From a virus (taxonomy: Duplodnaviria > Heunggongvirae > Uroviricota > Caudoviricetes): a DNA stretch of 26,870 nucleotides. Numbering within the stretch: position 1 is the first letter of the stretch; each line of letters starts with the position of its first letter. Of the stretch, positions 11,901 to 14,900 are shown in pieces. A program made the position numbers. The stretch lies in IMG/VR virus record IMGVR_UViG_2869947659_000007, positions 1 to 26,870 of that record. The stretch is one strand, 5' to 3'.

Positions 11901-14900
11901 CCAGCCATTCCAGTCCTAACTCCAGAACGGGTAGGCAAAATAGAAGTGCTATCCGGCAGCTTCTTAATGAATCCAGTTCAAAGCCCTGTAAAGGAACAAG
12001 CCGCTTTTGCTGTAAAAAACGTTCGGCAAGAGTGACTAATTTGCTTTGTTCCTGTTCCGTCAGACACGTTAAAAGGGGGATCGATAGTGCTTCCTGCCTG
12101 GGAAGGGCAGTTTGATGTGCTGATTCTTGTACTTTCCAGGGCCACTTAATCATCGTTTTGCTCGCAAACTTGTCACTTGAACAAAATTGCACGGACAGGG
12201 ACTGTTAAAATGCCAAATTTCCTGGCATCATGGCAACCATCTGAACGGAGAGATGCCGGAGCGGCTGAACGGACCGGTCTCGAAAACCGGAGTGGGGGCA
12301 ACTCCACCGGGGGTTCAAATCCCCCTCTCTCCGCCAAAATTCAATCACTTATACATCATTAAGTCAGTGACAAAAATCACACGTGGAATTACTTGGAATA
12401 TTTTCAGGTAACGGGACATCAAGTGTCGGTGAAACTTTAACCTTCCTGTCATAGATTAGCACTTGCCCCTCGGTTTTGTGACCAGAGAAAAGTTGCTTAT
12501 CCCGACTGCTTCCTTCATAGTCTGAAATTCCTTTCGCCTTCAGATCATGAAAGGTGAAGTCTGACATCATACTGTTTTGTCAGCTGATATTGTTCCGCGG
12601 TTTTCGGATTACCTGCCGTAATATTTTTTAAATGCAACATTGTTAAATACTCGCTACGTTATACCAGATGCCATTAATCAGTTTTTGCAGCGGTCGGTAA
12701 TACACACCGTTGACGTTATCCGCTGAGTTACGGCCGGTATCCGATATCGATATCCCTGACAACCCGTGTCCCGAAGGTGAGCGAAACGTCCATGAAACGG
12801 TGTTGCTGCCAGGGTTGTAATACATTTCATAACCATACCGCACATCCTGTACCCCCTCAGTTCGATGTTTATAGCGGGCATCGAAGTTTCCGTAATTTAA
12901 CGGAATTACCTGTCCGTTTACAGCGAATGTGATACTACCATCGGTATTTCTCTGGCTGTAGAAATGCCAGCCGGAATCATCACCAAGCTCTGCAACAACA
13001 GGCCTGGATGGATTACCCCACAAATAAAACGCTGCATTTTTCGTGGAGTTGTTGGCGCTGGATAACGTGAATTTTTTAGCATTTCCGGCCTGAATATTTT
13101 TTAACGCTATCGCCACACCATTCTGGAAACGAAATACATGCTGTCCATTCGCATAAACATCCAGAATGCCGTCGCCGTTTTGTTTTATACCTGTATCGTT
13201 ATCCCCGAAAGCAATTGAATTCCCCCCAGGGCGTTCTGAACGCCGATACCCAGCGCACCATTGACCTGCGAACCACCGCCAACAGACACTTTATGCGACA
13301 TGGATATTTCACCCGTCCGCAGATTAATGGTGAACGGGCGCAGGGGACCAATATCGCCATTTTCCCCCTGACCTTCACTGGTGGGAATAAGGTGCAGGCA
13401 CTCTTCCGAACGACGAAAAATCAGGCCAAAAGCTTCGTTGAAAATCCTCAGCGCATTAACACCACGGATTTTCAGCTCTCCGGTCATGGTGTCGCCATCA
13501 CGCTGAACGGCATTTTTTGCCTTATCCACCGTGGGTTTTAATCCGAGGTTTTCAACAGCCTCATCCCTGTCTTCCACATCCGAAAGGTTATTTTTTATCA
13601 GCAATGCCTCTTCGTTAATTGCACCGCCCACCAGCAATAATATAGCCTTATATAGCTGGTCGTGTTCTTCTTTATTCAGTTCTATCCCGGCCTTCTCAAT
13701 GACACCACAGATTTCCTCCTGAATGGCATTCCACATGGCACTGTTCAGCCAGGTAGCAAGACGTCCTGTGCGAAGATTTCCGTCAGTAAATCCGTTCTTA
13801 CCCGGACCAAACTTATCTTTTACCGCAGTCAGCGTATCAATCCTGTGCATCTTCATCCTCATCTAGATAGGAAAATAAAACGACGGTGTGTGACGGACAT
13901 AATTTATTAATCACGCACTCCGCAACCGTATCCCCCCACGTCCGGATCGGTGTGTTGCAGGCGTCCGTGCATGTCTGCCACTGAGCACCGGCATCCACCG
14001 GCAACGTCACACGCCAGAAATAACGCCAGCGATCTCCCCATTCCGGATCGGGGCTTGCATCCAGGTGCTGGAACTGTTCGATCGTTACGCCGGTATATCC
14101 CAGCGCCTCAAGCTGATCCAGGAAGAACTGCTCATTTATGCCACCAGCCACATTGGCTTTTGCTTCAAGACGTTGCTGACGCTGGCGTAATGTCTGGGTT
14201 CCGACAGGGGAACAGGAATCAGGTAAACCATACAATTCTTCATAACGTTCAATCAGCTCTGTGGACTGACCGGGATCGATTTCAATCACCAGTTCATCAG
14301 CCCGCTGGTGAACACGCACAAGCGATGGTGCCAGACCGTCAAGTACACCGTCGGTATCTGACCATGCAGGCCCCGGCTGCATCAGTCCGTACAGCAGCTT
14401 TGTATAATCATCCTGTAACGAATCCATTATTTACTCCTTGCCGGGTCATAAGCCTGCCAGGTGATCTCGCCGAGCACCGGAAGCTCGGTCTCCCCCAGGT
14501 CAATATCCGATGAAGGGACGATTAACCGGTGGGCCACTTCACCAGCAGACAAACTGATGGCCTCACTGATTCTGGACAGATACATACGCCCCTCTGGCAC
14601 ACTGAGGTAGCCTGAGTTTAACGGACACTCCTTCCTGAAATAGAATGGCATCAGAAGGAGCTAATAATGAGCAGAAAAAACCAACGTTACTCTAAAGAGT
14701 TCAAAGCCGAAGCTGTCAGAACGGTTCTTGAAAATCAACTTTCGATCAGTGAAGGCGCTTCCCGATTATCCCTTCCTGAAGGCACTTTAGGACAATGGGT
14801 TACCGCCGCCAGAAAAGGGCTCGGTACTCCTGGTTCCCGCACGGTGGCTGAACTGGAATCTGAAATTCTGCAACTGCGTAAGGCGTTAAATGAAGCTCGC

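Follow-up and report, generated by a model that had tools for sequence, protein, structure and literature searches.

A Shigella prophage tail-fibre gene interrupted at a length-variable G run: probable neutral decay by slippage in a phage remnant

The window analysed here is the whole 26,870-nucleotide stretch of the IMG/VR virus record IMGVR_UViG_2869947659_000007, assigned to the Caudoviricetes, and it is 100% identical to CP026766.1 over 16.7 kb. On its minus strand the window carries a tail-fibre gene (12643..13850) that changes reading frame at a run of six G residues (hereafter G6; runs of other lengths are named likewise). We found that the gene has lost one base of a G7 run, that it lies, in a Shigella chromosome, in a 2-kb scrap of a phiP27-like prophage truncated by an insertion sequence (IS), and that the run has other lengths on the same scrap in sister Shigella lineages. 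We are confident that this is the pseudogene of a dead prophage, decaying neutrally through slippage at the run, and that it does not serve functional phase variation.

The break was located by frame translation and by alignment with intact homologues. The fibre open reading frame (ORF) starts at the ATG at 13850 (MHRIDT...) and meets a premature stop at 13185-13187; its 221-residue product (13185..13850, minus strand) consists of 210 native residues followed by 11 out-of-frame residues (IQLLSGITIQV). The native frame picks up again at the AAT of 13221-13219 and ends at the stop at 12643. This 3′ part (12643..13221, minus strand; Asn211 to Ile402 and the stop codon), which matches the corresponding part of an intact E. 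coli protein described below at all but one residue, is cut off from translation that begins at the fibre start codon. Between the two frames lies the G6 run of the coding strand, which appears as C6 on the plus strand (13222..13227); the plus strand there reads gaattCCCCCCag, and the C6 overlaps the GAATTC at 13217-13222. The original prediction had placed a frame change at exactly this cccccc run overlapping the EcoRI site, and both translation and alignment confirm it.

Megablast against complete E. coli genomes returned three full-length matches (L001 to L003), in each of which the aligned stretch was one base longer than the query. The matching records carry the gene as a single 1,209-base coding sequence for 402 amino acids, annotated as ‘phage tail protein’ or ‘hypothetical protein’. 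The G run is the sole indel in the 1,301 aligned bases: it is G6 in the window, G7 in L001 and L002, and GGGCGGA in L003. L001 (E. coli FDAARGOS_944), an intact prophage copy, is 99.7% identical to the window, and adding one G to the window gene restores a 402-residue protein that differs from the L001 protein by one residue, in the C-terminal half of the fibre. Since the intact homologues are colinear at 402 residues with G7, the window has a one-base deletion from an ancestral CTG GGG GGG AAT (Leu-Gly-Gly-Asn). The whole window has only four G/C runs of six or more, and as the alignment itself locates the indel in one of them, the match between run and frame switch is no chance coincidence. 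Comparison with homologous fibre genes had been set beforehand as a check, and it yielded intact 402-residue single ORFs with G7 or GGGCGGA at the site. By the same arithmetic, G7 and G10 keep the gene in frame, and G6, G8 and G9 put it out of frame.

The six-G state is fixed and inherited in the sub-lineage to which the window belongs. Public assemblies contain the exact 221-residue product in 155 index blocks, 8 of them with contigs above 1 Mb and 128 with contigs below 5 kb only, the size at which draft assemblies split off the IS-flanked remnant. Source records of the product carry the names Shigella boydii and ‘MULTISPECIES Shigella’ (e.g. ABB65621.1), and it is also present in CP000036 and other complete genomes. 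All ten loci retrieved with this product had G6 and the same IS junction. As product-based retrieval selects for G6, we repeated the look-up with the neighbouring YmfQ protein, which is unbiased for run length. It returned 29 blocks representing 10 places, among them one metagenome and four SRA runs assembled by Logan, and all ten had G6 with the same junction near mtfA. Isolates of the sub-lineage include SRR29080094, SRR8186629, SRR8148868 and SRR5504024. The exact-sequence look-up among 15 billion proteins found no G7 product on the window haplotype.

The surroundings of the gene are those of a dead prophage. Homology to the intact L001 prophage is confined to 12562-14602, that is, 2,041 bp. 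Upstream of the fibre gene, and overlapping its start by 14 bases, is an intact 196-residue gene for a baseplate wedge protein of the YmfQ/Mu gp48 type (13837..14427, minus strand; Pfam PF10076 Phage_Mu_Gp48, 3.9e-24; PHROG 203, 3.3e-70). Further upstream, the baseplate J/gp47 gene survives as its last ~58 codons (14427..14602, minus strand; PHROG 1608 and PHROG 6), a fragment for which Pfam Baseplate_J_C is recorded in sister loci. At 14602 the L001 homology ends, and an IS3-family element begins on the plus strand (14603..15866, the right end being approximate; orfA 14667-14969, orfB 15005-15823; Pfam HTH_Tnp_1 and rve). The element removed the upstream rest of the J gene in the window. Its junction with J is common to all Shigella copies examined except L021, which has an IS66-family element inside ymfQ.

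On the other side of the fibre gene, the chaperone gene for tail-fibre assembly is reduced to its first 79 bases (12562..12640, minus strand), up to the end of L001 homology at 12562; a full 181-residue Caudo_TAP gene stands downstream of the fibre in L001 and most sister Shigella loci. The stump is joined directly, at 12561/12562, to the 3′ fragment of a tyrosine integrase of another, serU-integrated prophage (12364..12561, minus strand), which matches an integrase pseudogene beside tRNA-Ser in E. coli ERL06-2442. The joint lies near tRNA-Ser (serU; 12247-12336) and mtfA, and no IS was found at it. None of the genes for the head, tail tube, sheath or hub is linked to the 2,041-bp remnant, and no virion can be built from it. 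Since these genes are missing and the chaperone is cut to 79 bp, the fibre would have no working function, as judged from its context. The gene thus shows the features of a cryptic-prophage pseudogene: its frame is broken where that of intact orthologues is not, its neighbours are truncated, and the lesion is inherited across a lineage. Decay had been one of the explanations first proposed for the interruption, and it is the one borne out by an IS-truncated 2-kb scrap without a chaperone gene and a deletion inherited across a lineage.

We then asked which other run lengths occur by predicting the corresponding products and looking them up by exact sequence. The G8 product (217 residues) was found in 58 contigs and 117 blocks, in S. 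boydii, the G9 product (222 residues) in 32 contigs and 57 blocks, and the G10 product (403 residues, with one extra Gly) in 5 contigs; the look-up contained no G5, G11 or G12 product of the remnant. The G8, G9 and G10 alleles share their IS-cut remnant with G6, so that the length changes would postdate the death of the prophage. In an alignment of 28 loci over 2,038 bases, from which L021, L022 and L025 were left out for IS1 insertions or large deletions, only 16 columns outside the tract were variable. G6 was confined to one flanking haplotype, and each of two others (A and B), which are two single-nucleotide polymorphisms apart, carried several lengths among G7, G8, G9 and G10. When longer flanks were considered, G8, G9 and G10 again stood on near-identical backgrounds. 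The run is thus likely to be a hot spot of replication slippage, with five length alleles across lineages.

Some of these length calls are to be read with care. On the IS-cut remnant, G7 is represented by one contig (P0171) and three long-read genomes. The long-read genomes L007, L019-L021 and L026, of the CP0267xx-CP0268xx series, lose one base in other short runs where draft assemblies do not, namely at the equivalents of window positions 13932-13937 (a C6 in ymfQ) and ~12856 (a G5 in the fibre gene). These losses resemble long-read homopolymer errors and make run-length calls from the series unreliable. A second frameshift at the G5 run of some copies, giving a 366-residue product (P0139), comes from the same series and may be an artefact. 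Assembly noise around one true length was considered as the source of G8, G9 and G10; it is possible for the long-read genomes, but it was dropped as a general account, because each length has the support of tens of records from draft and small-contig assemblies and G6 is strictly tied to one haplotype. In two S. boydii-type G8 genomes (L022, 8910-9607; L025, 8758-9455), IS1 has inserted into the fibre gene, in its 3′ half, which is an independent sign of decay. The sister lineages with G7 to G10 (L014-L033, L019-L027) also have in common the loss of 210 bases, in frame, from the second fibre gene, a phage_tail_N-domain gene located about 2.8 kb downstream of the remnant start, which encodes 352 residues as against 422 in L001/L004.

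The G tract itself is not conserved across homologues. We compared the codons at the Leu-Gly-Gly site in 80 IMG/VR relatives. The codons were interrupted, mostly as CTG GGC GGA, in 58 relatives, and an uninterrupted run was present in only 10 (G7 in eight, G10 in one and G6 in one); the site was not homologous in the remaining 12. In S. sonnei, the allele encodes a 346-residue fibre whose N-terminal 210 residues are identical to those of the window, and its run is G7 in at least 1000 contigs, G8 in 13, G6 in eight and G5 in one. We take these counts to mean that G7 is fairly stable and longer runs are unstable, and that the tract arose secondarily, as an accident of the choice among synonymous codons. 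The S. sonnei fibre (P0037/L041) and the L002 fibre closely match the window protein over 13222-13850 to just past Leu-Gly-Gly-Asn-Ser, P0037 being exact over residues 1-210, and both diverge after the site (NSIVLGDNDTGF...). Their divergence right after this motif places a joint of fibre mosaicism or recombination at or beside the G run.

The family of the repaired protein, as seen in PHROG and tblastn comparisons, indicates what kind of phage the gene came from. The repaired fibre matched PHROG 6859 ‘tail fiber protein’ from end to end (E-value 7e-199), and its best phage match was L54 of phiP27, with 71% identity over the whole protein. Pfam gave nothing above the cut-off, with only a sub-threshold Gp34_trimer match. 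Residues 99-402 align with residues 376-669 of P2 gpH at 46.4% identity (E-value 6e-71), which upholds the earlier suggestion of a P2 gpH-like C-terminus; the repaired fibre showed no match to gpH residues 1-375. Its first ~120 residues matched, in the PHROG comparison, the N-termini of several fibre families with other C-termini, as would fit an attachment module. The tail-attachment and receptor-binding parts had been described as lying in two frames. The frame change stands, but the break is not at the boundary of the two parts; it comes after Gly210, some 110 residues into the gpH-like part. It had also been proposed that the gene, being shorter than gpH, had lost a central shaft. This finds no support, because the intact homologues are colinear at 402 residues, the phiP27 fibre in the same gene order has 332, and intact relatives range over 332-402 residues, the usual length of the phiP27-like fibre family.

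The tail module of phiP27 (L47-L57) has a gene order identical to that of the intact copies: tape measure, DNA circularization, baseplate hub, V, gp46, J, gp48/YmfQ, fibre, chaperone, second fibre and L57, the last position being taken by a DUF4376 gene in the intact E. coli/Shigella prophage copies. J/gp47, gp48 (YmfQ), the fibre and the Caudo_TAP chaperone, in synteny with L001-L003 and phiP27, identify the source of the remnant as a phiP27-like module with a Mu-type baseplate. The window differs from phiP27 in holding just 2 kb of this module, in its repaired fibre of 402 rather than 332 residues, and in the tract codons, which are CTG GGT GGA in the phiP27 contig copy (L073) and therefore form no homopolymer. 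The likeness to P2 gpH/gpG consists of the gpH 376-669 match and the Caudo_TAP gene that follows the fibre in intact copies. In their first ~98 residues the fibres of this family bear no relation to gpH, the length of 402 as against 669 residues is the native state of the family and not a deletion, and the baseplate context is of the Mu/phiP27 type rather than the P2 type.

The following course of events would account for these observations. The parent would have been a temperate, phiP27-like phage that carried a baseplate module of the Mu type and whose first fibre had 402 residues and, through the codons CTG GGG GGG, a G7 run. The IS3-family element and an associated deletion would have removed everything upstream of the last ~58 J codons in a common ancestor of several Shigella lineages, releasing the fibre gene from selection. 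Replication slippage could then have shortened the run to G6 in the window lineage and lengthened it to G8, G9 and G10 in its sister lineages, and the G6 allele would have become fixed and inherited in the former. A later rearrangement presumably took away the chaperone gene except for 79 bp.

Several points weigh against this course of neutral decay. Neutrality and lack of expression are read from the context of the gene. The run lengths are those of assembly consensus sequences, so that cultures may be heterogeneous at G6. The G6, G8, G9 and G10 loci were retrieved by their exact products, which biases the allele frequencies, and the long-read G7 calls on the remnant are perhaps undercalled G8. 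Finally, G7 and G10 restore the frame, a fact that a selectionist reading could invoke.

Such a reading would be functional phase variation, in which the fibre is ON with G7 and G10 and OFF with G6, G8 and G9, in the service of a living phage or exapted by the host. We consider it improbable. The mononucleotide run at 13222-13227 does lie inside the ORF and switch its frame. Run lengths from G6 to G10 occur among very close Shigella sequences, with several lengths on each of the two near-identical haplotypes A and B, and in the parent phage the second fibre and chaperone set downstream could serve when the first fibre is OFF. Known phase-variable systems usually have a run of 8 or more G/C for high-frequency switching, and the G8 to G10 alleles of the sister lineages fall within the length range of known phase-variable polyG tracts; the window run, at G6, does not. 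Hypermutable polyG tracts are found in receptor-binding genes of Campylobacter Fletchervirus phages, according to a citation of Sorensen et al. (2021, Cell Rep) in PMC10877375. They share with the present locus a length-variable G homopolymer that toggles the frame of a phage receptor-binding gene. Those tracts, however, serve living phages and functional diversity, whereas the phage of the window is dead, its G6 is fixed and most of its relatives have no tract.

Further evidence also speaks against a functional switch. In every Shigella copy examined the genes for head and tail are missing, together with nearly all of those for the baseplate, and the window lacks the chaperone gene as well; a working function of the gene would be lost, to judge from this remnant context. 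The ten of ten G6 places of the window sub-lineage show no length variation among close isolates, and their run is short and comparatively stable. With 58 of the 80 relatives interrupted at the site, the tract does not appear to be kept by selection. In S. sonnei, G7 is stable in at least 1000 contigs, and some Shigella copies have IS1 inside the fibre gene. The pattern agrees with neutral, length-dependent slippage, as indel rates in E. coli climb exponentially with homopolymer length (PMC8510543). Slipped-strand phase variation, which the original prediction had listed among its explanations, therefore holds as to the slippage mechanism, seen in G6 to G10 on the same remnant, but finds no support as to functional switching, given the uniform G6, the unconserved tract and the absence of a virion. 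There is only a slight chance that G8 to G10 in some S. boydii lineages represent a true high-frequency ON/OFF switch of an exapted fibre or receptor-binding protein, such as one masking a receptor, or that the G7 of a living phage gives rise to a subpopulation of virions that lack the first fibre and use the second set. If the latter were true, the living phage would achieve by slippage what Mu achieves with the host-range switch of its G segment.

Recoding is a still poorer alternative to neutral decay. Full-length fibre could in principle be made from G6 by −1 frameshifting on G GGG GGA or by transcriptional slippage that adds a G. CTG GGG GGA formally holds, in frame, a heptamer of the X XXY YYZ type (G GGG GGA), and a −1 slip there would give exactly Leu-Gly-Gly-Asn-Ser. 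However, the homologues are single ORFs with G7 or interrupted codons, so that two frames are not the native design; the 100 nucleotides downstream fold no better than shuffled sequences (z −0.56; 52 of 200 shuffles as good); and the G8 and G9 alleles would require different shifts. Efficient slippage by bacterial RNA polymerase requires longer runs, mostly of A or T. We rejected a programmed −1 frameshift despite the heptamer, for want of a downstream structure and because the homologues are single ORFs, and regard recoding of either kind as very unlikely.

A sequencing or assembly error that dropped one G from a true G7, which had also been suggested at the outset, is hardly credible: CP026766.1 does belong to a complete-genome series whose sister records drop one base in other homopolymers (L007, L020 and L026 at the equivalent of 13932-13937; L019-L021 at a G5 run), but the same G6 recurs in many independent assemblies, with the product in 155 blocks, in CP000036 and in other complete genomes, with all ten places retrieved through the neighbouring gene, including the four Logan SRA assemblies and the metagenome, and with no G7 product on the window haplotype among the 15 billion proteins.

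The remainder of the window has been much rearranged. The serU integrase is split: its remainder, together with a DUF4224 gene and a partial exonuclease gene, lies inverted at 24288-26504, in a block 89% identical to a prophage of E. coli ERL06-2442. A second copy of the same IS3-family element, in direct orientation (26502-26870), abuts the inverted integrase block. The break points of the integrase agree within 3-4 bases, which suggests a target duplication by the IS followed by rearrangement. Copies of IS1 occupy 1-753 and 22231-22998, and a further IS3-family element at ~3778-5078 appears to truncate the large inverse-autotransporter gene yeeJ (ORF 4918-10941). Lambdoid early genes (YdaT, DUF977, Ead/Ea22, hok and DUF968) lie at ~15860-21900, separated by the IS from the fibre remnant. 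Most Shigella copies resemble the intact prophage in that ipaH, which encodes an E3 ligase effector of the type III secretion system, is located just past the two fibre sets (9850-11491 in L001; about 11800-13450 in L004-L013), and it is frameshifted in FDAARGOS_944. The ipaH region is gone from the window lineage through the 12561/12562 rearrangement.

The biological weight of the finding is small: it adds one more homopolymer frameshift in a decaying Shigella prophage. Rearrangement and pseudogenisation have been described in Shigella (PMC8072062). The fibre gene shows no essential difference from the ordinary homopolymer-frameshift pseudogenes of these IS-ridden genomes, sharing with them a single-base indel in a mononucleotide run, an unneeded gene, and IS truncations and rearrangements; what is unusual is the presence of five length alleles in one run. 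To read the locus as a host-range switch of a phage would call for evidence from reads and from expression. The G6 to G10 polymorphism is real and informative about lineage; it may offer a fast-evolving typing marker, and it is a trap for annotation and variant calling. It also provides a natural example of how slippage speeds up when, in a gene freed from selection, a run lengthens from 7 to 8-10.

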